NCBI RefSeq assembly: GCF_003334335.1
Contig: NZ_QOWQ01000003.1
DNA: 64,000 nt
Reading direction: 5' to 3' (one strand)
DNA from: Escherichia coli
GTDB lineage: Bacteria > Pseudomonadota > Gammaproteobacteria > Enterobacterales > Enterobacteriaceae
How positions within the stretch are numbered: position 1 is the first letter of the stretch; each line of letters begins with the position of its first letter. Below, piece after piece: positions 1-43,901 of the stretch. A program made the position numbers and the translations under genes. The notes under the pieces are model-generated. The model saw only the letters and a list, made by a program, of their open reading frames with translations, had not been told where the DNA came from and did not search any database.

Positions 1-235
1 ACGCGAGGCATCGTCTTAACGAGGCACCGAGGCGTCGCATTCTTCAGATGGTTCAACCCTTAAGTTAGCGCTTATGGGGTCAGGTCTCCCCGTTCCGCAA
101 GCTGCCGCGATTTTTCCCGCCACTGCTTCACGGCGATATCATCCAGGTAGGCGGGGGCTTTCGGTGGTCTTGCCATGCTTATTTTTCGTCAGATTATTTT
201 TCAAAAAATTCCCGTGCATAAAAATTTGGGGAGGC

Positions 236-285
236 GTTCGGTGCCCGGCGGGGTCGGGTTTGTCCTGAAAACGCCCCCCACCCCG
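236..285. promoter_or_regulatory. GC-rich imperfect inverted repeat, candidate cos/packaging site
   Basis: GGGGAGGCGT ... ACGCCCCCC arms around GCCCGGCGGGGTCGGGTTTG core, flanked by AT-rich DNA, immediately downstream of the HNH gene. Confidence 0.25.
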
Positions 286-298
286 TCATACAGCCTCA

Positions 299-481
299 TC
301 AGCGATTGCGGAAACATTCCATAACCTCGCGGTCACGGTCGGTTAATCGCTTCGCTGTGATGCGTTCTGCGCGTCCTGACGCTTTATCTTTATGCCCTGT
401 TTCCTGTGTCTTCCATGCGTCACGCTGCCTTATAAGTCCACGGATAAGGCGGTTTTGTTCCCGCTCATTCATCAGCGTCAT
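299..481 (-). CDS. Hypothetical small protein (about 60 aa) overlapping the HNH stop
   Basis: ATG at 481-479 overlaps the last HNH codons; C-terminal LTDRDREVMECF stretch looks HTH-like; no convincing RBS. Confidence 0.25.
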   Translation of the reverse strand: MTLMNEREQNRLIRGLIRQRDAWKTQETGHKDKASGRAERITAKRLTDRDREVMECFRNR

Positions 482-905
482 ACATCCAGTTATTGCGGTT
501 AGCGGCCCGTTCTTCCTCTTCACGAAATCCACCTGCGGCACGCTTGCTTTTTGTTGCCGGATCAAGCCACTTCGTTTTCTGGTTATGACACGCCTGGCAC
601 AATGGCTGATGGTTCCATTCGGGCCAGAAGAGAACATCATCACCGCCATTAATCGGGATAATGTGATCCACCACCACGGCGGGCGTATATATCCCCTTCT
701 CAAGGCATCGCACGCATAACGGGTTTTTACTCAGATACATGGCGCGGTATTTTTCCCACTGTCTGGAGTACCCACGCGCGCGGCGGTGTCCTCGTCTGGC
801 ATCCTCTGCACGCCATGCCGCCCGCCTGTGCTCCTCACACTTGCCGGACTTAACGCGCCTGTTACAGCCTGGTTCTGTACATCGTCTTAATGGTTGCCAC
901 GGCAT
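465..905 (-). CDS. HNH endonuclease, phage packaging-associated
   Basis: 146 aa with Cys-rich N-terminus and DHIIP...H...N...CH...CH HNH-type motif; start overlaps connector stop (ATGA). Confidence 0.85.
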   Translation of the reverse strand: MPWQPLRRCTEPGCNRRVKSGKCEEHRRAAWRAEDARRGHRRARGYSRQWEKYRAMYLSKNPLCVRCLEKGIYTPAVVVDHIIPINGGDDVLFWPEWNHQPLCQACHNQKTKWLDPATKSKRAAGGFREEEERAANRNNWMYDADE

Positions 906-1201
906 CAGTACACCCCCACATCACGGTAAGCCGTCCAGAGCGCGCCAATCGTCATGGGTACGCGCGTTTTTGCGTTATCCGCTACCAGCTGGCGATTCTC
1001 GTACAGGTGAGCGATAAACATCATGCAGCCAATCTTTATGGCTGGCGTGAACTCCAGCCCGTCATCAAAGCGCCTGCCTATATGTATCTGGCACGCCTCA
1101 AGCGATGCGGCAATGTATCCGCTGATTAACTGGTCTTCCTCGTCGCCATCGATGCGGCAATGGAGTTTCACTTCTTCCAGGGTGATAAGTTCTTCTGTCA
1201 T
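905..1201 (-). CDS. Head-tail connector protein, gp6-like
   Basis: 98 aa, N-terminal ITLEEVKLHCRIDGDEEDQLI motif typical of gp6-like connector proteins; translationally coupled to neighbours. Confidence 0.8.
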   Translation of the reverse strand: MTEELITLEEVKLHCRIDGDEEDQLISGYIAASLEACQIHIGRRFDDGLEFTPAIKIGCMMFIAHLYENRQLVADNAKTRVPMTIGALWTAYRDVGVY

Positions 1202-1536
1202 TTTTCCGCGCCCTCACGACAAAGAATTTCAAGGCGTGTCCTGGCGGCATCCGGCAGCGGTTGCCCGATGATATTCAGTACACGCCCCGCCAGCGGCCCC
1301 GTACTGACCTTTATCCGGCTGGTGGCGTTGATGTCCTTCCGGTACCGTATCCAGATCCTTACGGTACCAATCGCCAGCTCTGCACCCGATGAAATGGCCT
1401 CCTTGCTGCTGATCATGTTCACGCTTGCCCAGAGTGTGTGACCGTCCTCCCACGTTTCGAGTATTTCGCCGGTTATATCCCTGGTCTGTTTCAGGGTCTG
1501 AATCGTTACCCTGTCACGCAGTCGCCCTATGTTCAT
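1198..1536 (-). CDS. Head closure / head-tail joining protein
   Basis: About 113 aa from ATG at 1536 overlapping portal stop; RVTIQ ... IRYR pattern of head-tail joining family. Confidence 0.7.
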   Translation of the reverse strand: MNIGRLRDRVTIQTLKQTRDITGEILETWEDGHTLWASVNMISSKEAISSGAELAIGTVRIWIRYRKDINATSRIKVSTGPLAGRVLNIIGQPLPDAARTRLEILCREGAEK

Positions 1537-2744
1537 TCCGGTTTTTCTCCCTCGCTGATTTTTACTTCCTGTTTCCATGCCTGGCTGAACTCATCACCAC
1601 CATCACGCGGGGACAGCCCTTCACGTTCGCGGGCTTCGTTCGGGCACATAACGCCGGATTTGATGCCGCGTTCATAGGTGGCAAAGCGTTCGCCAGGTGT
1701 GGCCCGTAACAGGTCCGCGCTGTCAAACTCCACCTGATACCGGATACCAGGTACAGGCGAGGCCACCAGCAGGGCGTTTTTTATCTGCTGCTCAAAGTTC
1801 GCCAGCCACGGGCGCATTGTCATGGTGAGAAATGCGCGGCTTGCCTCGCTGAAATTGCTGTAGGTGCTGTTGCTGTATTCCTGCAGAAAAATCGGCGAGA
1901 CGTTGAACATTCGGGCGATGTCTTCAATGGTGAAGCGACGGGAGGCCAGCCATTCAGCATCCTGATTACTCATGCCCAGCTGCTGATAGCTCATACCCCC
2001 TTCAAGGATGGGCGTTTTTCCGGCGTTTCTGGCCCCTTTGTAGCGTTCCAGTGCGGCTAATGCCTGTTTGCCCTTCACGCCGTCCAGCCATTCGCCTGAC
2101 GTGATAACCCCTGCCGCCATCATGCCATCACGCATCACGCTCGCGCCGTGGCGTTGTTGGGCCAGCCCAAGCCCCAGCGATTCGCGGCAGATGGTTACAG
2201 GTGAGCGCCCCATAAAACCGTCATCCGTGGAGTAACGAAGGTGGAGAACCTCCCACGGTAAATAGTTGCGGGTGTTTCCGGTGTAGGCGTCAGTGATGCA
2301 GTAGCGCCAGTTGTGTTCGCCTGTCTGCTCCACGTTCACCGACTGCGGCGGGTAAGGATGTAAAGCCACCGGAAAACCATCACGCCCCCACTGAATCACC
2401 GCATAAGCATTACCGTTTAACAGGCAGTGGCGGATCATCATTCGCTTAAACTGGTAGGGAGTCTGCCACGCGTTCGGGCGCTCGTTGAGGATGTGATCGA
2501 CCGGATGAGAATCAAGCCACTCGCGGGCCTCCTTCCCCTTCTCATTGCGTACCAGGTACAGGTAACACGGCATGGTAGCCACCGCCTCAGAGATGACCGT
2601 CACGGCGTTCATGACGGCGGGCAGTGATTCCGCTGTCCCCGATGATACGTACTCACCCGCCCCCGTGTTCGATGTGCCAGCCAGCGCCATAAATTCATCA
2701 AGCGTCATGCTGCGCTGCTCTTTTTTTCTTCTGAAAAGCCACAT
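1533..2744 (-). CDS. Phage portal protein, HK97 family
   Basis: 403 aa with portal-family conserved core; sits between protease and head-closure genes. Confidence 0.9.
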   Translation of the reverse strand: MWLFRRKKEQRSMTLDEFMALAGTSNTGAGEYVSSGTAESLPAVMNAVTVISEAVATMPCYLYLVRNEKGKEAREWLDSHPVDHILNERPNAWQTPYQFKRMMIRHCLLNGNAYAVIQWGRDGFPVALHPYPPQSVNVEQTGEHNWRYCITDAYTGNTRNYLPWEVLHLRYSTDDGFMGRSPVTICRESLGLGLAQQRHGASVMRDGMMAAGVITSGEWLDGVKGKQALAALERYKGARNAGKTPILEGGMSYQQLGMSNQDAEWLASRRFTIEDIARMFNVSPIFLQEYSNSTYSNFSEASRAFLTMTMRPWLANFEQQIKNALLVASPVPGIRYQVEFDSADLLRATPGERFATYERGIKSGVMCPNEAREREGLSPRDGGDEFSQAWKQEVKISEGEKPE

Positions 2745-2745
2745 A

Positions 2746-3303
2746 TCACACCCCCGCTAAATCCACCCACCAGCGGCGATTATCCGCACGCGGCATTTTT
2801 TCGGGGTGCTGCTCATACAGGGAACGGCGGGCCAGCTCCACGCCGGAATCGGGGTAAGCCGGTACCGATGTAACGGTAATTTCGTACAGTTCCGCCACCA
2901 GCACGGTGCGCACGCATGGATCTGTTGTGGTATCCCATACATCCTTACGGGAGCGAAAGCCAAAGCTCATCCCCGAGATGTCCCCACGCTTAACCAGTTC
3001 GATAACGTCGCGCCCTGTACTGGTATCCGGTGGGGTCAGTTCAAAGCGTAACCCTGTTTCGTCCTCTTCCAGTTTCAGCGTGCCGGAACGGGTACGCCCC
3101 AGCAACATGCTGTGGTCATGCTCATACAGGCCGCGAACGTCATTACCCGCCGCAAGCCATTCAGTAAACGCTCCCCGCTGGAATTTTTCGTAAAACTCCC
3201 CCCATAGCAGCTCTGAAAGCTTATCCCAGCGAACAACGTAGCCTGTAAGCGTGTTGCTGGCGCTGGTGGTGATTTCCGATGACCGGATTTCCATACTCTT
3301 CAT
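2746..3303 (-). CDS. Prohead (head maturation) protease, HK97 family
   Basis: About 185 aa; ORF track gives 2746..3318 but ATG at 3303 has the better RBS (GGGTGA); HK97 protease-like sequence. Confidence 0.85.
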   Translation of the reverse strand: MKSMEIRSSEITTSASNTLTGYVVRWDKLSELLWGEFYEKFQRGAFTEWLAAGNDVRGLYEHDHSMLLGRTRSGTLKLEEDETGLRFELTPPDTSTGRDVIELVKRGDISGMSFGFRSRKDVWDTTTDPCVRTVLVAELYEITVTSVPAYPDSGVELARRSLYEQHPEKMPRADNRRWWVDLAGV

Positions 3304-3318
3304 AATTTTTTCACCCAT

Positions 3319-3347
3319 AAAACACTAAAGGGGCTTTTAAGCCCCTT
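3319..3347 (-). terminator. Intercistronic hairpin/attenuator after major capsid gene
   Basis: AAGGGGC-loop-GCCCCTT stem followed by U-rich tract on minus strand between capsid stop and protease start. Confidence 0.5.
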
Positions 3348-3357
3348 CTGTATGCTG

Positions 3358-4515
3358 TTAATCGTCGTCCTGTGGCAGTTCCAGAATCTTGATCGCGTTC
3401 GAATCCACCACGCCACCGCCTAAATATTTCTGCGTGAAAATTTTGATGAAGCCCGGCTCTGTGAGGTTGTCCGGTCTGGTGCGAACACCTGTTTCGTGAT
3501 CAACAATGTAGTAACCGCGTTTGAAGTCACCCAGGGCAATAACGTTATCAGGCATAAACTCCAGATATTCGACCGGAAGGCCCAGCAACGTATCAGGATC
3601 ACCCGCCTGTAAACGGTCACGCCAGATGTAATCACCGTTCGCGTTCTTCACCTTCTGGAGTTTTGCCGCCGTCGTGGAGTTAACCACCCAGACCGCGTTT
3701 TTGCGGTATTTTTTACGTAATGCAAATTTCAGGTCGATCAGCGGGTCCGCAGATGTCCACGCCAGAGATTCGGAAGGTTTAATTACCTGCAACGTACCAA
3801 AATCACGCTCTTTGTCGTTCTTCTCTGCACGGGGTACGGATAAAAAGCCTTTTGCTTTTTTGTCACCGTCGCCCACAACCAGATCGCTTTCTTCGGTTTC
3901 CGTGAAGGTGTCGCCAATCTCGCCCGTCAGCCATGAAAGGATGTCCACATCGGAAAAATCCACGATTTCCTGTGTGGTGCGCGGGTACGCATAGACCGGA
4001 TACAGCTTAATGCTCACCTCGTTAATCTGCGGGGTGCTGGTCTGTTCGCGTGTCTTACCCTCTTCACCGTGGTTAACGGTCGCACCGCCAGCGGAAACAA
4101 GCTGCTTAAACTCGTTGCTGCTGATTTTCTTCACGGTACAGATGCGGCGCATGGTGGATTCATCCGTCAGCATTCGCATGATTTCGGTGTTCAGTTCGGG
4201 GATAACGGTATAACCACCATCAGCGGGAACGCCTGTACTTAATGCGCGGGTTTCACCTGTCAGGATGTAGTTGCGGAGTTCTGCCGGGTCAGTGGTCTGG
4301 CTGCTTTTACCTGGCTTGCTGCGCTCTTCGTCTGCAATGGCTTCAAGGCGGGAAATGTCTTTATCGAGGGATTCAGCTTTAGCGCGTAATTCGTCAAATG
4401 TTGCGCCCTCAGCATCGTTAAGACTGCGGTTTTCTTTTTCCGCGTTCTCCAGCATGTCGCGCATCTGATTTTTAATGGCGGTTTTCTGCTGGCGTAATTC
4501 GATTATTCTCGGCAT
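3358..4515 (-). CDS. Major capsid protein, HK97 fold, with N-terminal coiled-coil delta domain
   Basis: 385 aa; charged coiled-coil N-terminus then HK97-type capsid body; adjacent to prohead protease. Confidence 0.9.
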   Translation of the reverse strand: MPRIIELRQQKTAIKNQMRDMLENAEKENRSLNDAEGATFDELRAKAESLDKDISRLEAIADEERSKPGKSSQTTDPAELRNYILTGETRALSTGVPADGGYTVIPELNTEIMRMLTDESTMRRICTVKKISSNEFKQLVSAGGATVNHGEEGKTREQTSTPQINEVSIKLYPVYAYPRTTQEIVDFSDVDILSWLTGEIGDTFTETEESDLVVGDGDKKAKGFLSVPRAEKNDKERDFGTLQVIKPSESLAWTSADPLIDLKFALRKKYRKNAVWVVNSTTAAKLQKVKNANGDYIWRDRLQAGDPDTLLGLPVEYLEFMPDNVIALGDFKRGYYIVDHETGVRTRPDNLTEPGFIKIFTQKYLGGGVVDSNAIKILELPQDDD

Positions 4516-4522
4516 AAAAAAA

Positions 4523-4552
4523 GTCCTGGGGTTAAGTAAGGAACTCCAGGAC
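4523..4552 (-). promoter_or_regulatory. Hairpin plus U-run immediately 5' of capsid start codon
   Basis: GTCCTGG ... CCAGGAC stem (7 bp, about 16 nt loop) followed by TTTTTTT then ATG; no canonical SD at normal spacing. Confidence 0.35.
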
Positions 4553-4729
4553 GCGGCAAAAACTCAACCGTTTTTCATAAGGAAATCAGCAATCGCACCG
4601 ATCGTTTTCCCGCCTGGTAATGAATATTGGCGAGAACATTAACAGGCGGAAAAGTGGCCCCAGCGTCCTGGCACCACGGGCGAGAATAATCATGATTCAG
4701 TTCGGGTAAAATATGCCGATCCTGTCAGT

Positions 4730-4756
4730 GAACAACGTGGAACAACCGCGAACAAA
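4730..4756. promoter_or_regulatory. Three GAACAAC direct repeats at 10-bp phasing upstream of head operon
   Basis: gAACAACgtg gAACAACcgc gAACAAAtaa on plus strand (GTTGTTC on the transcribed minus strand), about 215 bp upstream of capsid start. Confidence 0.45.
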
Positions 4757-4761
4757 TAATT

Positions 4762-4796
4762 TACAAAAAATGACAAAAAGCCGGATTGCTCCGGCT
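4762..4796 (-). terminator. Rho-independent terminator after small cargo gene
   Basis: GCCGGAgcaaTCCGGC hairpin followed by TTTTTGTCATTTTTTG on minus strand. Confidence 0.7.
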
Positions 4797-4806
4797 GTAT
4801 GCGTGC

Positions 4807-5031
4807 TCAGTCCCTGATCCCTTTCAGAAATTCTATCAATGCATCTATCTGTTCAGGATTTACCGCCAGCATTTCACCGGACAGAGCACATCTCACAAAA
4901 CCATGCTGATCCTTTTCAATCAGTGCGCCCGTCTCCAGGAATGCGCGGTAATCATTGATGCTCATCGTCTCCATGTTGTCAGCATGGTATTTATCACGCT
5001 GTTTTAATATCTCATCAAATTTCATCGGCAT
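4807..5031 (-). CDS. Hypothetical protein, 74 aa, terminator-bounded cargo (moron-like) gene
   Basis: ATG at 5031 with GAGGAA RBS; terminators on both sides; no recognisable family. Confidence 0.55.
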   Translation of the reverse strand: MPMKFDEILKQRDKYHADNMETMSINDYRAFLETGALIEKDQHGFVRCALSGEMLAVNPEQIDALIEFLKGIRD

Positions 5032-5123
5032 TGTTTTTTCCTCTGTTGTGTCTGTTTGTTTCAGATAGTAACTATGCCTGACCGTGACGAAAACCCGGTA
5101 ATGCGCCATACCGTTTCAACTGG

Positions 5124-5149
5124 TGCAAAAAAAGCCGGATTTCTCCGGC
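5124..5149 (-). terminator. Rho-independent terminator ending the early/replication operon
   Basis: GCCGGAgaaaTCCGGC hairpin followed by TTTTTTT on minus strand; near-identical to hairpin at 4780-4795. Confidence 0.7.
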
Positions 5150-5156
5150 TGTGTGA

Positions 5157-5429
5157 TTAGCTGTCCTGGTAATTTCGCCATATTTCATCACCAGCACCAT
5201 CCATACCCATTTCGGCATAAGTGCGATCGACCGCCTTTTTCAGGTCTCCGTAATTATCCGGCGGCTCCGGTGGCCTCTGTGCCTTCCTGGAACATTCCAG
5301 CCGTCGCATCGTAACCTGATGCCGTTCCTTGTCTGTCTCCACCAGCAGCATGACTTCACCCCATCGCGCCGACGCCCTCCGGTAAAAGCCTTTTGCCTCG
5401 AGTTCCTCCGCTATGCGGTCATGTACCAT
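5157..5429 (-). CDS. Hypothetical protein, 90 aa
   Basis: ATG at 5429 with strong RBS (GAGGGGGTGA), 10 nt after SSB stop; no recognisable family. Confidence 0.55.
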   Translation of the reverse strand: MVHDRIAEELEAKGFYRRASARWGEVMLLVETDKERHQVTMRRLECSRKAQRPPEPPDNYGDLKKAVDRTYAEMGMDGAGDEIWRNYQDS

Positions 5430-5439
5430 CGTCACCCCC

Positions 5440-5850
5440 TCAGAACGGAATATCATCACCGTAGGGGTCATCGTCTCCCGCTGGTGGCTGATTACCCTGT
5501 GTGCCTGTGGTTTTGCGTCTGTTCCCGCCAGGACGTGCCGCACGGGCACTGATTACGCTGTCTGCAATAACCTGATACCCCTGTCGTGTTTCCCCGTTCT
5601 GTCCGGTCCACTGGCTTACCTGCATCGTGCCGGATACGCTGGCAACATCGCCTTTTTGATGTTTAGCCAGGAAATCGGCCTGTTTGCCAAATGCGATAAC
5701 CGATAACCATAACGTCGCCTGTCCGTCATGTGCTTGGCTGCATGGCAACGATACCGCCATACGCGCCAGAGTCATCGGTGTGCCCTTGCTGCTCTGTTTT
5801 ACCAGCGGGTCGTCCACCAGGCGCCCGTAAGCTGCAATTTGTGCTGTCAT
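5440..5850 (-). CDS. ssb: Single-stranded DNA-binding protein
   Basis: 136 aa; OB-fold region aligns with E. coli SSB; Gly/Gln-rich linker and acidic C-terminal tip ending DDIPF. Confidence 0.85.
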   Translation of the reverse strand: MTAQIAAYGRLVDDPLVKQSSKGTPMTLARMAVSLPCSQAHDGQATLWLSVIAFGKQADFLAKHQKGDVASVSGTMQVSQWTGQNGETRQGYQVIADSVISARAARPGGNRRKTTGTQGNQPPAGDDDPYGDDIPF

Positions 5851-5859
5851 ATTGCCACC

Positions 5860-6165
5860 TCAGTGAAGCGATCCGGCGTTGTTCTTTTTCATCTCTTCCA
5901 TCATTTTTTCAGTGAGCATTACGCACTGAAAACCCATGTTTTTGATGTCTACGGGTTTCATGCCTTTGTCAGTGGATATCACAGGCAGAATATCCTGATA
6001 CACATCGCGGTCAGGGTAACTAAGCACACAAAGCGCCCATGATGCCACGGGTGAGGATCCTTCGTCTGTTTCAACCCACCAGCCTGGTGTAGCTGCGCTT
6101 ATTTGCTGAATCGTGATCCGTCCGTTGTGCTTGTAAAGTTTTTCACCAAATTTTGGTTCGCTCAT
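5860..6165 (-). CDS. Hypothetical protein, 101 aa
   Basis: Start overlaps upstream gene stop (ATGA); operon context; no recognisable family. Confidence 0.5.
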   Translation of the reverse strand: MSEPKFGEKLYKHNGRITIQQISAATPGWWVETDEGSSPVASWALCVLSYPDRDVYQDILPVISTDKGMKPVDIKNMGFQCVMLTEKMMEEMKKNNAGSLH

Positions 6166-6413
6166 GATTCCAACTCTCCGGTTTTAACGTTGATTGTTGT
6201 TACCTGTTCCGCTTCGGCAATCTCACGTTCTGTCAGCGTGGCAAAGTTTGCCGCTGCTGTGGTCATGAATGCGCTTATCAGGTCGGGATGTTCTTTCGCG
6301 TATCCTTCCCCCGCGTGGCGGTCTATCGTTCTGATTGCCACCTTTAAGGCGTGCTCTGTCATGTCTAACGCTTTATATTTTGGCTCTGTTCTGTCTCTGT
6401 GTTTTTGAGTCAT
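6162..6413 (-). CDS. Hypothetical protein, about 84 aa
   Basis: ORF track gives 6162..6545 but that N-terminal extension runs through the iteron array; ATG at 6413 has GAGGTG RBS. Confidence 0.45.
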   Translation of the reverse strand: MTQKHRDRTEPKYKALDMTEHALKVAIRTIDRHAGEGYAKEHPDLISAFMTTAAANFATLTEREIAEAEQVTTINVKTGELES

Positions 6414-6620
6414 TTGCCCACCTCTACCCACTTTTTTCGCCCACTTTTTACGTTTTCCCACTTCGTCCAACGTGGGAAATTTGGGATTTATATCATCTTG
6501 TTTCATAGGTATTTTTTTAGTGCCCACTTTTTGGGATATATACACGTGGGAAAGTGGGTAATTTTGTTAAAATTACGTTAAATCGCCCACCTTTCCCACT
6601 TTTAATGCCCACTTTTTACA
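6414..6620. repeat. Candidate replication origin: iteron array around an AT-rich spacer
   Basis: At least 10 copies of (G/T)CCCAC(T)n / GTGGGAAA in both orientations flanking an AT-rich segment (about 6478-6518), directly 3' of the replication protein gene. Confidence 0.6.
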
Positions 6621-8013
6621 GTGGTCCTACATCATCACCGTCAATGTAGATCACGTCGTCTTTTTCCAGTTTGGCTAACCATCGTTTAAGGTGTTTTGTG
6701 TCATACCCCAGCTTTTTCATATCGTCACGTAACAGCGGGATCGTGCACTTGTCGCCGTGCTGTGTGCGTGAACGTATGCACCCCCATAGCGCGGTATGGT
6801 TTTCCGTCTTGTTGCCTGCCTCCTCGATGCGCTCCAGTTCAACGGGAGGGCGCGGCTTATCCACCACCACCAGCGACGTGATTAACTCCCCGTCAGCGTC
6901 GGTAAAAAGCTCCACCACCCGCAAATCATAGGCAGCCTCTTTGAGTTCCTCCGCGTCCTTCATTTTGGTGCATGAGATAACCAGCGCTTCGCTTCCTGCG
7001 TCCTCCCTGCGTATCCGGTATTCAGCATCCAGCGAAGCACGAAATGCACTGGAACCGCGCGCGCCTTTCGTCTCATCCTTGCCGGAATGGTGAACCACCA
7101 GCACCGTGGCCCCTGTGCGCCGTTTAAGCTCGTCACACCCACGGATAAACGCCCCCATATCACGGGAATCATTTTCATCATTGCCACCAAAGCAACGCGC
7201 CAGAGTATCAAGAATAATCATGCGTACAGGTTTACCCGTTTCCCGCTCCACCTGACGGGCAGCGATAACCAGTTCATCAACATCAAGCGGGACAGCCGGA
7301 AAAACTGGACGGTTTACCAGATACAGATTTTTCACCTGCTCACCGTGCACAACCTCCCAGGCTTTTACACGACGCGGAACGCCGATACCGCCTTCACCAA
7401 CCACATAGAGAACAGCGCCATGCGCCACCCTGCGGCCTCCCCACTGGCGGCCCGTGGAAACGTGACACGCCCACGAACCCGCAAGGAATGATTTATAGGA
7501 ACCGCTTGCCCCGTATATGCTGCATAGCGACGATGCCGGAATAATCCCCTTTACCACGTAATCTAATTGCGTGTCGTATCCGGCAGATCCAACGCTCATC
7601 GGTAGCGTGGTTTTTCGCTGGTGGTGTTCTTCCCCTGGCTTTTTCCCCCGCTCCCGTTCCAGATATTCGCGCCAGTTCTCCCGCTTCTGGCTGTGTATCC
7701 CTTCGGGGTAATAATTCGCATCAGTTACGCCCGCCGCCGCCAGCTTGTGCGCAATGGCATTAATATTTGATGGCCTGATGTGGCCTGCCTTGTACAGCCG
7801 GACACAATAGCGCCCCTCGTCGATGATTCTCAGGTCTGCCAGTTCATCCAGTTGATCATCAGCCAGCACAATGGGAGGCACATTATCGCCAGCCAGTCGC
7901 CCGTCCTGTTCCTGCCACTGTTTCGCATGTGCCCACGCATCACTACCCGCAAAAATGATGACTTCGGTCATCTTGTCGTAAGGCTGTTTTTTTAAGTTCG
8001 GTGCGCTTTTCAT
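6616..8013 (-). CDS. Satellite replication protein, RecA/DnaB-like P-loop ATPase with N-terminal extension
   Basis: 465 aa; Walker A GASGSYKS and ILDTLARCFGG...VHHSGK helicase-like motifs; followed by the iteron array. Confidence 0.85.
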   Translation of the reverse strand: MKSAPNLKKQPYDKMTEVIIFAGSDAWAHAKQWQEQDGRLAGDNVPPIVLADDQLDELADLRIIDEGRYCVRLYKAGHIRPSNINAIAHKLAAAGVTDANYYPEGIHSQKRENWREYLERERGKKPGEEHHQRKTTLPMSVGSAGYDTQLDYVVKGIIPASSLCSIYGASGSYKSFLAGSWACHVSTGRQWGGRRVAHGAVLYVVGEGGIGVPRRVKAWEVVHGEQVKNLYLVNRPVFPAVPLDVDELVIAARQVERETGKPVRMIILDTLARCFGGNDENDSRDMGAFIRGCDELKRRTGATVLVVHHSGKDETKGARGSSAFRASLDAEYRIRREDAGSEALVISCTKMKDAEELKEAAYDLRVVELFTDADGELITSLVVVDKPRPPVELERIEEAGNKTENHTALWGCIRSRTQHGDKCTIPLLRDDMKKLGYDTKHLKRWLAKLEKDDVIYIDGDDVGPL

Positions 8014-8309
8014 TTCTTGCCCCTGAATCCGTTAATCATGTTTTTCATCTTCTGAATATTGGCGCGTGCTTTCTCCCTGCTGGTGGGCACGTTACGCGGT
8101 ACGGCCTGCACCAGAGAAAAATCACGCCGGAACTGATAAACAGGCATCACGCAATCATATTCGTAACTTTCACGACGGTAGGTTACGCGCCGTTCCTCCA
8201 CGCCCTTAATCATTACCGTGCCGCCGTACTGGTCGCGGTAAATATCACCGCGCGTAAATTTAGGGTGAGTGTTGCCACTGGCAGTTAAGCCAGAATATTT
8301 AAGTTTCAT
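8010..8309 (-). CDS. Hypothetical protein, 99 aa
   Basis: ATG with GGAG RBS; stop overlaps rep start. Confidence 0.5.
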   Translation of the reverse strand: MKLKYSGLTASGNTHPKFTRGDIYRDQYGGTVMIKGVEERRVTYRRESYEYDCVMPVYQFRRDFSLVQAVPRNVPTSREKARANIQKMKNMINGFRGKK

Positions 8310-8314
8310 TATTT

Positions 8315-8548
8315 TTATTCTCCGGTGTGCTGTTCGTTATATCTGTCGTGCAATGTCTCTATTTCTTGTAGTTCCATTATTACAGGCTCAAGAAGCGTTA
8401 TTAATGCCGTGACAATTCTTGATTTTTGTTTGTCGCGTTCATTGTCGCCAAGTGTTTCAAGCCATATGCGCAATATTTCCAGCATGTTTTCACTGTGAGA
8501 AAGTGCAAGAAATACGCGTTCTGTTGTTTCGTGGTAAATATCACGCAT
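8315..8548 (-). CDS. Hypothetical protein, 77 aa
   Basis: ATG at 8548 with GAGGA RBS; operon context. Confidence 0.5.
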   Translation of the reverse strand: MRDIYHETTERVFLALSHSENMLEILRIWLETLGDNERDKQKSRIVTALITLLEPVIMELQEIETLHDRYNEQHTGE

Positions 8549-8620
8549 GGCTTACATCCTCAGGAAATTTTCTTCTGTAACGCGCCTCTGCCACATATTC
8601 CGCATAATCGGCGGCGATAT

Positions 8621-8773
8621 TCAGTACATCAAGCCCGTTGATTTATATTCTCTCGTGGAAAGTAAGAAAAAAGCCGCTCTAATAAGTTCTGGCATTGACG
8701 AAAGCGCATCAGCCGCATCATCAGGAACGCCGGAAAATTCTTGTTTCAGGGAATTAAAACGATCATCACGCAT
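8621..8773 (-). CDS. Hypothetical small protein, about 50 aa
   Basis: ATG at 8773 preceded by GGGGGG RBS; overlaps upstream gene stop by 8 nt. Confidence 0.3.
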   Translation of the reverse strand: MRDDRFNSLKQEFSGVPDDAADALSSMPELIRAAFFLLSTREYKSTGLMY

Positions 8774-8996
8774 AACCCCCCCCATTTTCACAATCAGCAA
8801 CAAGAATATTTTTAGCGTCATTCAGCGACCGCGTTGCGGTGTATCGGATACATTCCAGGGCGAATAGTGTGTATTCTTCCCTTTCTTCCCTTTCTTCCTT
8901 TTGTGCAAGCTCTGCTGTGCATTCAATATCAATAAGCGCGTGCATCAGCGTAGTGAGTGCGGCGGCGGCTGCGTCCGGTGTGGTTTTATTGCACAT
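8766..8996 (-). CDS. Hypothetical protein, about 76 aa, acidic Glu-rich segment
   Basis: ATG at 8996 overlapping the stop of the upstream gene. Confidence 0.4.
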   Translation of the reverse strand: MCNKTTPDAAAAALTTLMHALIDIECTAELAQKEEREEREEYTLFALECIRYTATRSLNDAKNILVADCENGGGYA

Positions 8997-9216
8997 GTAC
9001 CCCTCCGCATTTTTTTTCGTTAGAAATAAGCGTTCTTCTTTCCTGTTCATCGATCAGGAATACGCAGACCTCACCGCTAAGGCGTTTAAGTAAGCCGATG
9101 ATTGCCCCTGATTCGCTGTCGGTCATCATGCCTGGGTAATCCTCTGCCAGTGCGCAAATAACTTCGATTTGGTGGGCGCGTTCTGCTGCCTGTTGTAGTG
9201 TGATTTCCTGGCTCAT
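8986..9216 (-). CDS. Hypothetical protein, 76 aa
   Basis: ATG at 9216 overlapping stop of upstream ORF (ATGA). Confidence 0.5.
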   Translation of the reverse strand: MSQEITLQQAAERAHQIEVICALAEDYPGMMTDSESGAIIGLLKRLSGEVCVFLIDEQERRTLISNEKKCGGVHVQ

Positions 9217-9413
9217 AAGCCTACCCCCTGACGAATACGGGCAGCGAATACCATCACGCAGCCAGCCGGGGATTGCAGGCGTGCTTCCTGTTCGCTGGTG
9301 GCCTCAATGGTAATCACGCGCGGTTGTGCAGTGCTCAGGGCGATAAAACGCCAAATGTATTTATTCAGGTTGTGCGAGTCCCGCCCTTGCGGGTGTGTGG
9401 TATGATTTCTCAT
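9213..9413 (-). CDS. Hypothetical protein, 66 aa, first gene of leftward operon
   Basis: ATG at 9413 with GAGGTAG RBS; this is the only plausible part of the spurious 340-aa ORF 9213..10235. Confidence 0.45.
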   Translation of the reverse strand: MRNHTTHPQGRDSHNLNKYIWRFIALSTAQPRVITIEATSEQEARLQSPAGCVMVFAARIRQGVGL

Positions 9414-9508
9414 AGCTACCTCGATACTCTCGTTATCGTTGGTGGTTAGAAGCCCGGTTAGTGTTAGCGCACTGCCGGGTTTCGTCGTTTCTGCACCTTG
9501 CGCCAACA

Positions 9509-9566
9509 AGGTGTTGAACACCAATTTAAACCCAGGTGTTAAACACGTCAAGTGTTGAACACTTAT
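9509..9566. promoter_or_regulatory. Three palindromic operators in divergent promoter region
   Basis: GGTGTTGAACACC, GGTGTTAAACAC and AGTGTTGAACACT; last one contains TTGAAC -35 candidate with CATACT -10 about 17 bp downstream for the RHH gene. Confidence 0.5.
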
Positions 9567-9612
9567 TTTTTTTCCTGCATACTGCATTTGTTTTTTATGA
9601 GGGGTACACCAC

Positions 9613-9792
9613 ATGGCGACAAAAGCAGTAAACGCAAAATCACAAACCGTTGCGGCAAGGGTTCCGCATGAAGTTATGAACAATGTTGAGGCGGTAAAAA
9701 TGCCTGGCGAAAGTACGGGGCAATTTGTTACTGCAGCATTAAAACGAGAAGTTGAATATCGCCAGCGGCGCAAGGCCAAAGAACCAGAGTAA
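9613..9792 (+). CDS. Ribbon-helix-helix DNA-binding protein, 59 aa, candidate satellite repressor
   Basis: Not in ORF track (below 60 aa); ATG with GAGGGG RBS; AARVPHEV beta-strand then helices, typical Arc/CopG-like pattern. Confidence 0.55.
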   Translation: MATKAVNAKSQTVAARVPHEVMNNVEAVKMPGESTGQFVTAALKREVEYRQRRKAKEPE

Positions 9793-9834
9793 TCACCATC
9801 AGCGCCGTGGTGTAAGGTATTACGGCGCATTGCT

Positions 9835-10023
9835 ATGCAGGACAACACAATGACCGATAAAGAATTGACCAAAACATTATCACCGGCACGGAAAAGACGG
9901 CGCAGAAAGATAGAGCATGAATCAGAAAGATTCGCGCCATGTGCTTTTGCCCTTGAGCAATTCCTTAAAGAGTACAGGGAAAAGCGCTCATTGCAGGTAT
10001 GGCAACGAACTGAACCAGACTGA
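9835..10023 (+). CDS. Hypothetical small basic protein, 62 aa
   Basis: Lies between the RHH gene and a plus-strand terminator in the same transcription unit; weak RBS. Confidence 0.35.
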   Translation: MQDNTMTDKELTKTLSPARKRRRRKIEHESERFAPCAFALEQFLKEYREKRSLQVWQRTEPD

Positions 10024-10116
10024 TAGCATTGCCCACCAGCCTGATAGCGACTATCATTGCCGTTCTTATGTTTGGGATCACACACACAAACGGCGCAGCG
10101 GGTTATCTGTTCAGAA

Positions 10117-10148
10117 AGGCGGCTCCATTTCGGGGCCGCTTTTTTTAT
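10117..10148 (+). terminator. Rho-independent terminator of the RHH operon
   Basis: GCGGC...GCCGC hairpin followed by TTTTTTTT. Confidence 0.65.
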
Positions 10149-10292
10149 ACCTGAAAAACCCCAATTTTGTTGTTTTTCAGTTTCACCAGGGCGAACGAAT
10201 CCCCGCCCACGTTCTGGCGTATATTCAATCTTCATGGTTATAGCTCTGTGTTCAGATGATTGATGTGTGGCGGCTGCGTGCCGCCAGCGTGA

Positions 10293-10481
10293 TTAATGAA
10301 CTGCCTTGCAGCTATCCTTCCAGGCCAGAACCTCGGATAAAGACCAGCCAACGGAACGACCGCCAAGTTTACGACGTGATGGGAATTGTCCGGCCTTTTC
10401 CAGGCGGTAGCGACACGTACGGCTAAGGCCGGTTAGTTTTTCGCATTCTTTTTCACGTATAAACCGATCAGTGCTTAACAC
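10293..10481 (-). CDS. alpA: AlpA-family transcriptional regulator/excisionase
   Basis: GTG start at 10481 with strong RBS (AAGGGGGG); ORF track extends to a TTG at 10562; EKLTGLSRTCRYRLEKAGQFP HTH typical of AlpA. Confidence 0.75.
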   Translation of the reverse strand: MLSTDRFIREKECEKLTGLSRTCRYRLEKAGQFPSRRKLGGRSVGWSLSEVLAWKDSCKAVH

Positions 10482-10631
10482 TATTGCCCCCCTTTCGTTT
10501 CTTAAAGAGTCATCAGGTGTCTTATTGTGTCGTATTGTTCCCGCTAGAGTGATGAATGGCAAATATTGAGGATGTATTATTTACAGAAAATGAAACAGTA
10601 AGAATAAAATCTTTTAAATTCATGTTAATAC

Positions 10632-10666
10632 AAAGGCATAAAATATTGTTTCATGCCTTTTTTTTC
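10632..10666 (+). terminator. Hairpin plus T8 terminator in int-alpA spacer
   Basis: GGCAT...ATGCC stem followed by TTTTTTTT on plus strand. Confidence 0.45.
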
Positions 10667-10754
10667 GCTCTTTAAAGAGTGATTCGCTAGTGTATAAAAA
10701 ACCAGTGACACATTAAAAATCAGCCACTTATAAATCTGTATGCTTTTTCGCCTC

Positions 10755-10810
10755 TTGTTCGTGGTTGTTCCACATTGTTGCTCATTGTTGCACGTTGTAT
10801 CTGTTCGCAT
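10755..10810. promoter_or_regulatory. Five to six TTGTT(C/G) direct repeats at 10-bp phasing
   Basis: cTTGTTCgtgg TTGTTCcaca TTGTTGctca TTGTTGcacg TTGTATctg TTCGC between int stop and alpA; same motif as at 4730-4756. Confidence 0.45.
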
Positions 10811-10846
10811 ATCCAGTATGCGCATACTGAAAAAACACGAAAAAAA

Positions 10847-12064
10847 TTATTTTCTTCTGGCTACGGGTAGCGTGGTTACGTTTTCATGTGTTCCCGCCAG
10901 TATCCCTAACCGCTCCGTCCACATATCCAGCGCATTGCGTTTAGCATCCAGATAACGGGAATGATTATAAACTCGCTGCATTCCTGGCATCTGGTGGCCT
11001 GTAAGCTGCTCCACGACATGCGGATCAACGCCTAAATCGTTCAGCATGGTTGTAAAGGTGCGCCGGATGTCATGCAGTGACCAGTGAGGATGATTAAGCC
11101 TCCTGTGCGCTAATCTTCCATACTGCGATACGCTGGCCTCCTGTTTCACTTCCCCCAGCAATAAGCCCGTGTGCCTGTTCTGCTCCACCAGCTGCGTGAC
11201 GAACGGCAGGATCGCTTCCGGTATGGGCCGGAATATTGCGACCTTCGTTTTGCTGTGCTCCTTCGGAACGGTCCATAGCATTTCCGTAAAATCCCACTCC
11301 CCGATCTCCGATAACCTCAGTTCTACCGTTCTGGCTCCGAAGACAATCAGGAGGCGGATTAACGCGACGTAGTAAGGGGAGAATATTTTTTTGTCCAGTG
11401 CCTGCAATAATTCGCCAAGTTCTTTGTTACTTAAGACACGTTCGCTTATATCCGGTTTTTTCCCAACGTCCGCCACGTTCAGATCGTCCAGAACGTTGCT
11501 GATTGCATAGCGCCGCCTACGGCAGAACTTAAGCGCCTGTTTGCACGCCTGTAGCACGAATCCGGCAGTAACAGGCGTTCGCTTTGCCACCTGGTCAAAA
11601 CAGGCCAGCCAGTGCCGTAGCTCGCATTTATCCAGCGGCATAGCACCAATCTGCTGTATTACGTGATTATTAAGTCGCCTTTTCAGGGCGATATAATCCA
11701 CGCGGTTTTCCTTTACGTAATACTCAAGCCAGTAGGTGAGCGCATCGCCAACCGTTACGGGCTTTAACGCTTCCTGTACGGTGTAATTCATCTCATGACG
11801 TGGATTTTTCCCCTCAGCCAGCCATGTGCGACACTGTGCGGCTTTTTCCCTGGCTGCTTTCAGGCTCAGATCAGGATAACTTCCCAGCTTAATGCGTTCG
11901 GGTCGTGTCTCCCTTCCCGTTCCGGCCCTGTATGTGAAATACCAGGTCAATTTCCCTGATGTTAAATATTTCACGCTCAGGTTTCCGCCATCACTATAAA
12001 ACGTGTTTTTCTCCGCTGGCTTACCATGAAGTTTCCTTAGCAAGGTATCGCTCAGTTTGTTCAT
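10847..12064 (-). CDS. int: Tyrosine integrase, P4-like
   Basis: About 405 aa from ATG at 12064 (ORF track starts at a GTG at 12076); P4-type N-terminal arm-binding region and C-terminal catalytic region with HDIRRTF and trailing Tyr; next to insertion junction. Confidence 0.9.
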   Translation of the reverse strand: MNKLSDTLLRKLHGKPAEKNTFYSDGGNLSVKYLTSGKLTWYFTYRAGTGRETRPERIKLGSYPDLSLKAAREKAAQCRTWLAEGKNPRHEMNYTVQEALKPVTVGDALTYWLEYYVKENRVDYIALKRRLNNHVIQQIGAMPLDKCELRHWLACFDQVAKRTPVTAGFVLQACKQALKFCRRRRYAISNVLDDLNVADVGKKPDISERVLSNKELGELLQALDKKIFSPYYVALIRLLIVFGARTVELRLSEIGEWDFTEMLWTVPKEHSKTKVAIFRPIPEAILPFVTQLVEQNRHTGLLLGEVKQEASVSQYGRLAHRRLNHPHWSLHDIRRTFTTMLNDLGVDPHVVEQLTGHQMPGMQRVYNHSRYLDAKRNALDMWTERLGILAGTHENVTTLPVARRK

Positions 12065-12100
12065 TGCTCTGCTCACGTTTTACCCCCTCTTTACGAAAAA

Positions 12101-12123
12101 GTGACTACACCAGTGACTACACC
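12101..12123. repeat. Tandem direct repeat (A)GTGACTACACC x2 between int and insertion junction
   Basis: Two adjacent copies seen directly in sequence; candidate integrase arm-type site or promoter element. Confidence 0.35.
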
Positions 12124-12252
12124 GATCGTTGCACAAAGGGCTACAACGTGAAACAAGCTGGAACAAGGAAAATCACAAATCTGTTGATAATCAAAAACAT
12201 AATGCACAGCCTGAAACATTATGAAACAGCAAAAAACACTAAATGATAAAAT

Positions 12253-13158
12253 GCTGTTATTCTTAACCCGCTGGTGCAACACATGGTCCGCTGGCGTGTG
12301 CCGCGTGTACTGGCGGTGTCGATTTTGATGACCATCATCGTGATGGCGATGGTGTTGCTATTAGCTTATCTGGGTTCCGCGCTCAACGAGTTGACGCGGA
12401 CGTTACCGCAATATCGCAACTCTATTATGACGCCGCTGCAAGCGCTTGAAGCGTTGTTGCAACGCGTAGGGATTGACGTCTCAGTTGACCAGCTGGCGCA
12501 TTATATTGATCCGAACGCGGCGATGACGTTGCTCACCAACTTATTGACGCAGTTATCTAATGCCATGTCATCAATATTTTTATTGCTGCTGACGGTGCTG
12601 TTTATGCTGCTCGAAGTGCCACAATTGCCCGGAAAATTTCAGCAAATGATGGCGCGTCCGGTTGAAGGGATGGCGGCGATTCAACGTGCGATTGACAGTG
12701 TTTCTCATTATCTGGTGCTGAAAACAGCCATCAGCATCATCACCGGCCTGGTCGCCTGGGCGATGCTCGCCGCACTCGATGTTCGCTTCGCTTTTGTCTG
12801 GGGATTGCTGGCCTTTGCGCTTAATTACATCCCGAATATTGGTTCAGTCCTCGCGGCAATCCCCCCTATCGCTCAGGTACTGGTGTTTAATGGCTTCTAC
12901 GAAGCGTTGCTGGTGCTGGCGGGATATCTGCTGATTAATCTGGTCTTCGGCAATATTCTGGAGCCGCGTATCATGGGGCGTGGGCTGGGGCTTTCCACAT
13001 TGGTGGTATTTTTGTCGTTGATTTTTTGGGGATGGTTGTTAGGACCGGTGGGTATGCTGCTTTCCGTGCCGTTGACAATTATTGTCAAAATTGCGCTTGA
13101 ACAAACAGCGGGAGGTCAAAGCATCGCCGTTCTGTTAAGCGATCTCAATAAAGAGTGA
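12253..13158 (+). pseudogene. tqsA: tqsA (AI-2 exporter) 3' fragment, 5' end displaced by the satellite
   Basis: Protein matches TqsA from about residue 50 onward; in-frame TAA immediately upstream at the junction; only GTG/ATG internal starts remain. Confidence 0.8.
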
Positions 13159-41446: not shown

Positions 41447-41479
41447 AAAATGGATGGTGCAAATGCACCATCCATTTTT
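41447..41479. terminator. Bidirectional terminator between add and ydgJ
   Basis: AAAATGGATGGTGCAaaTGCACCATCCATTTTT. Confidence 0.6.
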
Positions 41480-42519
41480 CATGCAAGGCACAAAGTCGCG
41501 CGATGTTTGGCGGATTCGATGCCCAGCTCAATCAACTCCATTACCTGGATTGCCTGGCTTGCCGGAACCGGATTTTCACCATCGCCATTTAACGCATCAC
41601 GAATAGCCGCATAGTAAGCCGGATAATTCCCAGGCACCGTCAACAGCGTTTCTTCGACACGTTCCTCACCTTCCACGCGGGTAAGTACGCCATCACGCAT
41701 ATCGTAGCCCCAGTCTTCCTGCGGTAGACGCTCGCCATTTTTCAGACGTTCTTCCTGTGGATCGAGGCCATATTTCACATAACTGCCTCGGGATCCATGC
41801 ACGATATACCGTGCTGACTCAGCGGCTGCCAGCATGGTACCGTGTAAAATGACTCGCCGCTGTGGATAGGACAAGATGGCGTGGAAATAATCGGTCGACT
41901 GCGCTCCGGGCCGTAACTGTGCCAAATCTACCGTCATGCTGACCGGTAAACCAAAAAGCGTAATGGCCTGATCAAGAAGATGTGGTGCTAAATCGTACCA
42001 GATACCGCTGCCTGGGCCGCCCTGTTCACGCCAACGATCGCGCACCTGCGGACGGAAGCGGTCAAAATGAGACTCAAAGTAAGCAACTTCACCCAGCACG
42101 CCTTCCGCGAGTAAACCTTTTAGCGTCAAGAAATCGCTATCCCAGCGACGGTTATGGAATACAGACAGCACACGCCCCAGGCTTTTTGCCAGCGCATCCA
42201 GCTCTCGCGCTTGTGACAGTGTCACGGTAAAGGGTTTATCAACGACCACATGTTTACCCGCCTCAAGCGCCGCTTTGGCTAACGGTAAATGGGTATCGTT
42301 GGGTGTAGGAATGACAATCAGGTCTATGTTGGGATCGTTAAACAGATGCTTCGGCTCAGAGACAACCGTAACCGTTGGCCAGTCGGCTTTTACTTTTGTT
42401 TCATCACTGCTGGAGATTACCGCCAGTTCCAGCCCGGGCGTGCCCGCAATCAGGGGCGCATGGAAGGTTTTGCTCGCATAACCATACCCAATCAACCCAA
42501 CACGGATGTTGTCGCTCAT
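41479..42519 (-). CDS. ydgJ: Gfo/Idh/MocA-family oxidoreductase YdgJ
   Basis: 346 aa from MSDNIRVGLIGYG; ORF track extends upstream. Confidence 0.9.
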   Translation of the reverse strand: MSDNIRVGLIGYGYASKTFHAPLIAGTPGLELAVISSSDETKVKADWPTVTVVSEPKHLFNDPNIDLIVIPTPNDTHLPLAKAALEAGKHVVVDKPFTVTLSQARELDALAKSLGRVLSVFHNRRWDSDFLTLKGLLAEGVLGEVAYFESHFDRFRPQVRDRWREQGGPGSGIWYDLAPHLLDQAITLFGLPVSMTVDLAQLRPGAQSTDYFHAILSYPQRRVILHGTMLAAAESARYIVHGSRGSYVKYGLDPQEERLKNGERLPQEDWGYDMRDGVLTRVEGEERVEETLLTVPGNYPAYYAAIRDALNGDGENPVPASQAIQVMELIELGIESAKHRATLCLA

Positions 42520-42761
42520 GTCATTGCCTCTCATTGAAGTATGATGGCTATTTGACACTATCCTTTACCCACGCTCAACAGTTTAATAACCTGCCAGCAA
42601 TAAGGGATGTTGTTTAACTTAAGTCAAAAAAATAGCGAATTTTCCAACGACAAAAGCTAAATATCGCAAAAACCTCAGTAAAAATCTTGCTGGAGCTATT
42701 ATTGCTAAGTAACATTTACCCCCTGAAGTTAATGGATCAATCAAGAGAGATGTGGGCTGTA

Positions 42762-42887: not shown

Positions 42888-43159
42888 GCTCTGCACTTGT
42901 GGAGCGACATGCTGCCCGTCCGGGTGCATGTTTTCACTTGTCGGATATTAAACCAGGAATTTATTATCTTGTTCGATGTTGTTGGTGATTGTCAGGGATA
43001 GTAAAGCGCGTTACTCTTTTCAGAGCAGTTTTTCATCCCTGAATATTTGCCATCAGCGCATTCTTATTATTGTAATAACACAAGCGTTCACTTTTGGTGA
43101 AATTTTATCATCACTAATAATACCTACCCCTTTGGTATTAATTATTTTATGGACCTTTT

Positions 43160-43375: not shown

Positions 43376-43460
43376 AGAAAGTAGCGATCGGTTATAAAAG
43401 CCTTATAATAACGCCCCTAAAATTAGATTTGCCTGTTTGCGTCGCTATTCTGGAGAACCT

Positions 43461-43901
43461 ATGACCACCACAACGCCACAACGTATTGGAGGCTGGTTGC
43501 TTGGCCCGTTGGCCTGGCTTTTAGTCGCTCTGTTGAGTACGACGCTGGCGTTGTTGCTGTATACCGCTGCGTTATCTTCTCCGCAAACATTTCAAACGCT
43601 CGGCGGACAAGCACTGACGACACAAATCTTATGGGGCGTTTCTTTTATTACCGCTATCGCCTTGTGGTATTACACACTGTGGTTGACCATCGCTTTCTTT
43701 AAACGTCGGCGTTGTGTTCCTAAACACTATATTATCTGGCTGCTTATTTCCGTATTGCTGGCAGTAAAAGCATTCGCTTTTTCACCCGTGGAAGATGGCA
43801 TAGCCGTTCGCCAGTTGCTGTTTACTTTGTTGGCAACCGCATTGATCGTCCCCTATTTCAAACGCTCGTCGCGGGTAAAAGCGACGTTTGTGAATCCGTA
43901 A
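43461..43901 (+). CDS. ydgK: Inner membrane protein YdgK
   Basis: 146 aa from MTTTTPQRIGG. Confidence 0.85.
   Translation: MTTTTPQRIGGWLLGPLAWLLVALLSTTLALLLYTAALSSPQTFQTLGGQALTTQILWGVSFITAIALWYYTLWLTIAFFKRRRCVPKHYIIWLLISVLLAVKAFAFSPVEDGIAVRQLLFTLLATALIVPYFKRSSRVKATFVNP

Follow-up and report, generated by a model that had tools for sequence, protein, structure and literature searches.

Phased TTGTTC decamer arrays in the att arms, the int-alpA spacer and the capsid-upstream region of an Escherichia coli satellite as candidate AlpA operators

We analysed a 64,000-nucleotide stretch of Escherichia coli DNA (assembly GCF_003334335.1, contig NZ_QOWQ01000003.1), here called the window, whose 5' part carries a satellite that, to judge from its sequence, is a capsid-forming phage-inducible chromosomal island (cf-PICI) of the EcCIEDL933 type located in tqsA. 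The same motif, a decamer of the form TTGTTC(C/G)NNN directly repeated with a period of 10 bp, is present at five places in one element: in both attachment-site (att) arms, at a distal and a proximal site in the spacer between the integrase gene int and alpA, and upstream of the capsid operon. On balance we consider it likely that these decamers are cooperative sites for the AlpA protein, which would couple excision, alpA expression and head-gene expression. The window starts inside the element, the left end of which is visible only in relatives.

Between int and alpA, a sequence-only reading of this DNA had seen five to six repeats. The distal array (10755-10800, + strand) indeed holds five in-phase decamers, TTGTTCGTGG TTGTTCCACA TTGTTGCTCA TTGTTGCACG TTGTATCTGT, with TTGTTC at 10755 and 10765, TTGTTG at 10775 and 10785 and TTGTAT at 10795, spaced by exactly 10 bp; CTGTTC (10802-10807), the supposed sixth motif, does not keep the phase, and six in-phase units are a property of B-type relatives such as EcCICFT073. 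The three copies in opposite orientation that the same reading had placed at 4730-4756, 215 bp upstream of the capsid gene, were confirmed in the raw sequence: GAACAA on the + strand at 4730, 4740 and 4750 corresponds to three TTGTTC on the coding (-) strand, arranged as TTGTTCGCGG TTGTTCCACG TTGTTC, and the distance from the end of this array to the capsid ATG (4515) is 215 bp. The claim that one motif occurs in both regions also stood, as they have GGTTGTTCCAC(A/G)TTGTT in common, a 17-of-18 match. Two control regions proved to be an undercount, because a further array, of four units, lies at 12131-12166 (- strand) and a weaker pair at 10525-10540 (+ strand). With the coding strand as reference, the arm and capsid arrays share one direction and both int-alpA arrays have the opposite one.

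Chance was assessed with 300 shuffles of the window that approximately preserved its dinucleotide (first-order) composition. The window holds four arrays in which three or more TTGT are spaced by exactly 10 bp, against 0.023 expected per 64 kb, and a shuffle contained one at most. The pattern TTGTTCN4TTGTT with up to one mismatch gave eight matches in the window against 1.72 expected, and none of 100 shuffles reached eight. One of these TTGT arrays, TTGTTCGATG TTGTTGGTGA TTGT at 42969-42992 (+ strand), belongs to the host, in the intergenic DNA that separates an oxidoreductase gene (41479-42558, - strand) from a membrane-protein gene (43437-43901, + strand); it was treated as a chance occurrence, since about two such arrays per genome are expected randomly.

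The sequence-only reading had proposed a motif search in related satellites as a check. In a comparative set of about 90 loci (eight annotated E. coli relatives, EcCICFT073 and 80 IMG/VR contigs fetched by AlpA alignment), the arrays recurred at the same four positions, with the TTGT cores and the 10-bp phase kept and the spacers drifting. Among them are 35 different array sequences, which draw on 52 different decamers with the consensus TTGTTCCACG; beyond TTGT, which was used for detection, positions 5-7 of the decamer are informative and positions 8-10 carry almost no information. An alignment of the int-alpA spacer made independently of the motif likewise showed ACAA cores kept every 10 bp between drifting spacers. 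The number of units among relatives is three, five or six and changes by whole decamers, as in locus L167. When a genome collection was scanned with TTGTTCN4TTGTTCN4TTGTT, the matches listed were scattered and almost all in unrelated taxa, presumably by chance.

The capsid-upstream array was present in all 36 capsid-encoding loci, two of them with a single point change. Between late modules whose capsids are 63-75% identical, BLAST aligned only a block of about 50-60 bp made up of the array and its A/T-rich upstream flank. Classical PICIs that do not have the HK97-type module (such as L006 and EcCICFT073) carry the arm and int-alpA arrays and have no late array. In EcCICFT073 (L212, 13209-13668), the region before the lambda-type capsid and decoration genes has no TTGTTC array and instead holds a long palindrome, ATCATAACTGGATG-A-ACATCCAGTTATGAT, which suggests that its late genes are controlled differently.

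Upstream of the capsid gene, the final TTGTTC of the array occupies the -35 place of a TTGTTC, 16 nt, TATTTT arrangement (TATTTT at 4713-4708); a scan for sigma-70 promoters at the late site returned none at the scanner's threshold, below which this match falls. Directly upstream of the array lies a terminator-like hairpin, AGCCGGAGCAATCCGGCT, with a T run after it (4779-4796, - strand). It is kept in relatives, and as an intrinsic terminator it would keep read-through from upstream out of the capsid operon. In the int-alpA spacer, the distal array reads away from alpA, toward the 3' end of int. The predicted alpA promoter, TTGCCA, 17 nt, AACAAT (10534-10562, - strand), has both hexamers kept across diverged variants, and its -10 hexamer is part of a repeat unit of the weak proximal array (10525-10540, + strand), which has the orientation of the distal array and comprises TTGTGT (10525) and TTGTTC (10535), next to a degenerate unit at 10515. 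At the position of the proximal array, B-type relatives have TTGTGTCGGA TTGTGTCAGG. A conserved -10 element for a + strand promoter antisense to int and driven by the distal array was looked for and not found.

In the att arm upstream of int, the array TTGTTCCAGC TTGTTTCACG TTGTAGCCCT TTGTGC (12131-12166, - strand) lies between a 12-bp doublet and the tqsA junction, and it is kept in every relative whose locus covers that region. The opposite arm of the E. coli H19 element holds TTGTGTCTAT TTGTTCCACG TTGTTTCATA, and the same is true of every relative with the far end available. The doublet itself, GGTGTAGTCACT GGTGTAGTCAC (12101-12123, - strand), sits between the arm array and the start of int; these are its only exact copies in the window, and it occurs also in the left arm of H19. 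Doublets are confined to the att arms, where they directly follow each arm array at about 70-90 bp and about 130-150 bp from the tqsA junctions, and the internal arrays have none. They were present in both arms of every PICI type examined, with a sequence that varies with the type: GGTGTAGTTAAT in the EcCICFT073 type, TGTGTGGTCAGT in the thiM-rcnR type, GGTGTATCACTT in the hpt-gcd type and TGTGTATTGCAC in satellites embedded in the prophage terL gene, the last being the published 'doubled motif' of helper-embedded PICIs (HE-PICIs). Examples lie at 2413-2436 in H19 (L210), at 436-456 and 15272-15296 in L002, and in the arms of L127, L129 and L212.

The tyrosine integrase gene (10847-12076, - strand) encodes an N-terminal arm DNA-binding domain (PF13356, E = 1e-17) and a match to PF00589 (E = 7.5e-16). 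The P4-type integrase IntS of ICEMlSymR7A has the validated arm-type consensus TGKTGGTATC, which the doublets resemble. Because of this likeness, their HE-PICI-like distances and the Arm-DNA-bind_3 domain of the integrase, the 12-bp doublets are probably integrase arm-type sites. The decamers have another arrangement: they form three to six direct repeats at exactly 10 bp, with an array and a doublet in both arms, as would be expected of operator arrays of a recombination directionality factor (RDF). Arm-type sites would be limited to attP and matched to the integrase, and decamers are found also at two or three internal sites.

The protein that we propose to bind the arrays is AlpA, a 62-aa winged-helix protein encoded at 10293-10481 (- strand) and found throughout the compared elements. 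It belongs to the Phage_AlpA family (PF05930, E = 6.2e-17, residues 5-54) and matches PHROG 2790, 'excisionase and transcriptional regulator'. Its AlphaFold2 (AF2) model (predicted local distance difference test, pLDDT, 86) consists of a strand, a helix-turn-helix, a two-strand wing and a C-terminal helix, and Foldseek related it to the GIsul2 excisionase 8c3t (TM score 0.83, root-mean-square deviation 1.0), RdfS 8dgl, TorI 1z4h, BldC and Pukovnik Xis. A sequence search with AlpA against the PDB gave no match at E up to 1, and its likeness to TorI is in fold only.

AlpA has been called the master activator of Gram-negative PICIs. In EcCICFT073, AlpA alone activated a PalpA-lacZ fusion and not Pint, and its overexpression led to excision and replication (PMC6092414); the int-alpA spacer of that element contains a six-unit array and no doublet. 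AlpA was necessary and sufficient for excision of PICMI115 (PMC10803314), and a strain overexpressing alpA served to produce EcCIEDL933 capsids in the absence of helper phage (bioRxiv 10.1101/2025.02.11.637232). Since capsids are obtained by alpA overexpression alone, the late switch appears to need no phage protein, and a helper-phage protein is unlikely to be the late activator. AlpA is the best candidate by its fold and family, by the reported effects of AlpA alone, by the precedent of TorI, by the absence of two other candidates from some array-bearing elements and by L003, L128 and L129, which combine another integrase and other doublets with an unchanged late array and an AlpA homologue bearing an S-R-x-x-R-aromatic recognition helix. 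The sequences document that the arrays and doublets occur, non-randomly and conserved, at the places described, and to which fold and family AlpA and the integrase belong; binding of the arrays by AlpA, its direct action on the capsid promoter and the activating sign of that action are inferred. The earlier suggestion that one protein works at both the early and the late region is favoured by the conserved position, phase and core of the repeats and by the arm arrays, which connect the repeats directly with recombination, the binding itself being predicted; among the binders then listed AlpA gains, and the integrase arm domain and a small protein labelled RHH (ribbon-helix-helix) are argued against.

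According to the scheme that we propose, a helper phage would switch on alpA, as reported in the literature, and AlpA would bind the decamers head to tail, polymerising with one monomer per turn of DNA in the manner described for Xis, Cox, BldC and RdfS. In the int-alpA spacer, AlpA on the arrays would strengthen its own promoter in a positive feedback; in the att arms, AlpA on the arrays beside integrase-bound doublets would direct excision; and at the capsid operon, AlpA on the three decamers, which follow a terminator and abut a weak promoter, would turn on the head and packaging genes. The head genes would then fire only after AlpA has accumulated.

Several observations weigh against AlpA as the common binder. 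The integrase and AlpA diverge in parallel in the sample, and covariation separates neither of them as the partner of the array or of the doublet. In L003, L128 and L129 the AlpA proteins are only 47-53% identical and the arms keep one consensus TTGTTCG unit, so that the same family would have to read the late array while lacking a complete array in the arms. The Pint reporter, covering a region that contains an array, did not respond to AlpA (PMC6092414). The arrays point toward the capsid gene but away from alpA, the proximal pair overlaps the predicted alpA -10 element in a position more typical of repression, and the capsid promoter is a consensus match below threshold. Finally, DUF4222, Icd-like and YlcI/YnfO proteins are also encoded in all eight annotated E. 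coli relatives that bear the arrays.

This last point speaks for the idea that the decamers are bound by one of those three proteins or by a host response regulator that recognises direct repeats. Regulators of the OmpR family recognise direct repeats, phased at 10-11 bp, that take the place of the -35 element, and the tor box of TorR, CTGTTCATAT, also has TGTTC with a 10-bp period. We regard such a binder as unlikely, given the reports that AlpA by itself activates PalpA and sets off excision, replication and capsid production, and given that the arrays are placed beside the integrase sites in both att arms, as expected of an RDF. Two other element proteins were rejected as binders, because the array is retained where they are missing: the PerC-like protein is lacking in 11 of the 36 cf-PICIs, and a small open reading frame (ORF) assigned to PHROG 1957 is lacking in 10 of the 36 and present in six PICIs that have no late array.

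It seems quite improbable that the decamers are instead arm-type sites of the integrase, the internal copies of which would let Int regulate alpA and the capsid operon or would titrate Int. The Arm-DNA-bind_3 domain is consistent with this idea, the arrays in both arms are co-oriented like the P and P' sites of lambda, and a tandem spacing of about 10 bp, as in P'1-P'3, is typical of arm sites. However, PalpA responds to AlpA alone (PMC6092414). The separate doublet, present in both arms with HE-PICI-like geometry, would already offer four half-sites to an Int tetramer, and the doublet resembles the IntS consensus. Moreover, elements with an arm domain only 51% identical and with other doublets keep an identical late array.

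That the repeats have no dedicated binder and work through intrinsic curvature, as an UP element or an intasome bend, or that the late copy is a relic att arm left by capture of the capsid module, is very unlikely: repeats in helical phase do bend DNA and the left-arm and late arrays have the unit TTGTTCCACG in common, but the conservation is base-specific (TTGT, then T, C, C) and not merely A/T-rich, with variable spacers, and a relic would be expected to decay, yet the late array is the sole conserved block between the diverged late modules. Replication-origin iterons were also considered and rejected, as the arrays never adjoin the RepA-helicase or primase gene (6616-8013) and relatives carry a separate iteron set, TTGCGGGTTAT, elsewhere.

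TorI, P2 Cox and P4 Vis are well-known cases of the principle invoked for AlpA, in which one set of repeats serves both att arms and promoters. Cox and Vis have the excisionase fold and bind direct repeats that follow one another at about one helical turn, in attP for excision as well as at promoters, with Cox as the repressor of Pc and activator of P4 PLL and Vis as a regulator of the late promoters of P4. P4 is also a satellite, and Vis is a remote homologue of AlpA. Their repeats differ in sequence from those described here, and P4 has no capsid operon whereas this element has its own HK97-type head operon, on which AlpA binding is predicted. TorI has five cooperative sites in attL of KplE1/CPS-53, with cores GTTCG, GATCG and GTCCG, and three of them, 2 nt apart within 28 bp, have a 10-bp period and abut the -35 element of PintS (PMC2951348). 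TorI is, like AlpA, a small winged-helix protein; its sites lie among the integrase arm sites of an att arm and at a promoter, so that this RDF regulates transcription too, and many units here read TTGTTCG. Unlike the arrays described here, which stand also at two or three places outside att, its sites serve to repress the integrase promoter only, and control of structural genes by TorI is not known.

RdfS of ICEMlSymR7A and BldC are winged-helix proteins that assemble head to tail with one protomer per turn, and RdfS is both an RDF at attP and a transcription factor; RdfS differs in having no clear consensus and in needing an extra N-terminal helix that is absent from AlpA, whereas the motif here is sharp (PMC11963761). 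The doubled motif of HE-PICIs, tgTGTATTGCantgTGTATTGCa / TGTGTATTGCA, is found at distances of 81 and 132 bp from the centre of att. The paper describing it suggested binding by the four integrase arm domains and reported the motif as absent from other PICIs (PMC10111431). The doublets resemble it in their two co-oriented copies, in their similar distances around the att centre and in their place next to the start of int. The doubled motif therefore corresponds to the doublets, which here have another sequence, and not to the TTGTTC arrays.

A broader reading takes the capsid array as a shared late switch for any AlpA of this recognition-helix class, including the 47-53%-identical AlpA proteins of helper-embedded and hpt-site satellites, in whose own att arms the array is nearly lost. 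We think a switch shared so widely is improbable; if it existed, the AlpA of one satellite could trans-activate the head genes of another cf-PICI residing in the same cell, and in those lineages the activator role of AlpA would be split from excision, which a second AlpA-like gene overlapping int may perform. As a separate observation, L003 and L004 (both E. coli 2014C-3075) and L128 (E. coli 06-00048) are cf-PICIs inside the prophage terminase large-subunit gene, that is, helper-embedded, and carry two AlpA-like genes, one overlapping int and the other a 92-aa form followed by a Bro-N gene.

No description of TTGTTC arrays or of an AlpA operator was found in the PICI literature that we searched. 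The switching of the capsid operon in cf-PICIs is likewise unexplained in that literature, and the word 'promoter' is absent from both cf-PICI preprints. A text search of the literature for the motif gave only noise. The arrays offer concrete, mutable DNA targets for excision, autoregulation and head-gene expression, and make the AlpA regulon and head-gene control in cf-PICIs directly testable, in particular whether one 62-residue protein times the whole cycle. They may also serve as a sequence signature for annotating this group of PICIs and, together with the doublets, separate two kinds of att-arm site, RDF-type decamers and integrase-type doublets.

The satellite region is 96% identical to the H19 island inserted in tqsA, and its two control regions match O157:H7 genomes at 97-99% (about 97-98% for EcCIEDL933 strains). 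The H19 island is annotated with an integrase, a 62-aa helix-turn-helix protein, Icd-like proteins, YlcI/YnfO, DUF4222, a RepA-family helicase, SSB, a PerC-family protein and a small hypothetical protein, and after these with an HK97-type capsid, protease, portal, head closure, connectors, HNH, TerS and TerL. Like cf-PICIs, the element thus carries int and alpA in the same orientation together with a replication module and an HK97-type module for heads and packaging, and it lacks tail and lysis genes. EcCIEDL933 is reported to be induced by helper phage in an alpA-dependent manner and to take only tails from the phage (bioRxiv 10.1101/2022.09.08.507074). In the 5' part of the window, all satellite genes are on the minus strand, and the gene of the HK97-type major capsid protein (3358-4515, - strand) is the first of the head and packaging operon.

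Other features surround the capsid-upstream array. A second terminator, nearly identical to that at 4779-4796, follows the PerC-like gene (5133-5150, - strand); both consist of AGCCGGAG[C/A]AATCCGGCT followed by a T run, and they bracket the small ORF of PHROG 1957 (4807-5031, - strand, 74 aa), to which no function is assigned in that database. The 10 cf-PICIs without this ORF have a single terminator and then the array, and for this reason the ORF with its flanking terminators looks like a self-contained inserted cassette. The RHH label formerly given to the ORF found no support, PHROG 1957 being its only match. The capsid leader of 215 nt, from array to ATG (4516-4729, - strand), has a predicted minimum free energy of -71.1 kcal/mol (z = -3.35 against shuffles) and ends, in the predicted fold, with a hairpin and U7 right before the ATG that covers an AGGA Shine-Dalgarno-like sequence; late modules of the second type do not keep this hairpin.

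A perfect 16-bp palindrome, CAGTATGCGCATACTG (10814-10829), stands between the stop codon of int and the distal array. It is present in A-type relatives only and could be an operator for a helper-phage inducer or a host factor. A similar inverted repeat, CATACTGATA...TATCAGTATG, is found upstream of alpA in the hpt-site satellite L129. The A/T-rich int-alpA spacer also contains a hairpin with a T8 run (10636-10668, + strand), able to form a hairpin on the - strand as well, after int. It is flanked by a direct repeat CTT(T)AAAGAGT(C/G)AT at about 10500-10512 and 10672-10685, about 173 bp apart; hairpin and repeat are both kept across diverged variants. An Rfam scan of window positions 1-13000 gave only a sub-threshold match to the SymR antitoxin RNA at 9414-9486 (+ strand; 33 bits against a gathering score of 61, E = 0.0046), which may be due to chance; it lies on the strand opposite to the satellite genes, near the YlcI/YnfO-type region. 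In L002 (about 745-880) and L003 (about 1540-1720, - strand), the stretch between terL and the left att arm contains TTGCGGGTTAT three times in direct orientation and TAACCCGC three times in inverted orientation around an A/T-rich core, and this repeat region may be the replication origin or the cos/packaging site of type-2 cf-PICIs. The equivalent region of H19 (L210) carries different repeats.

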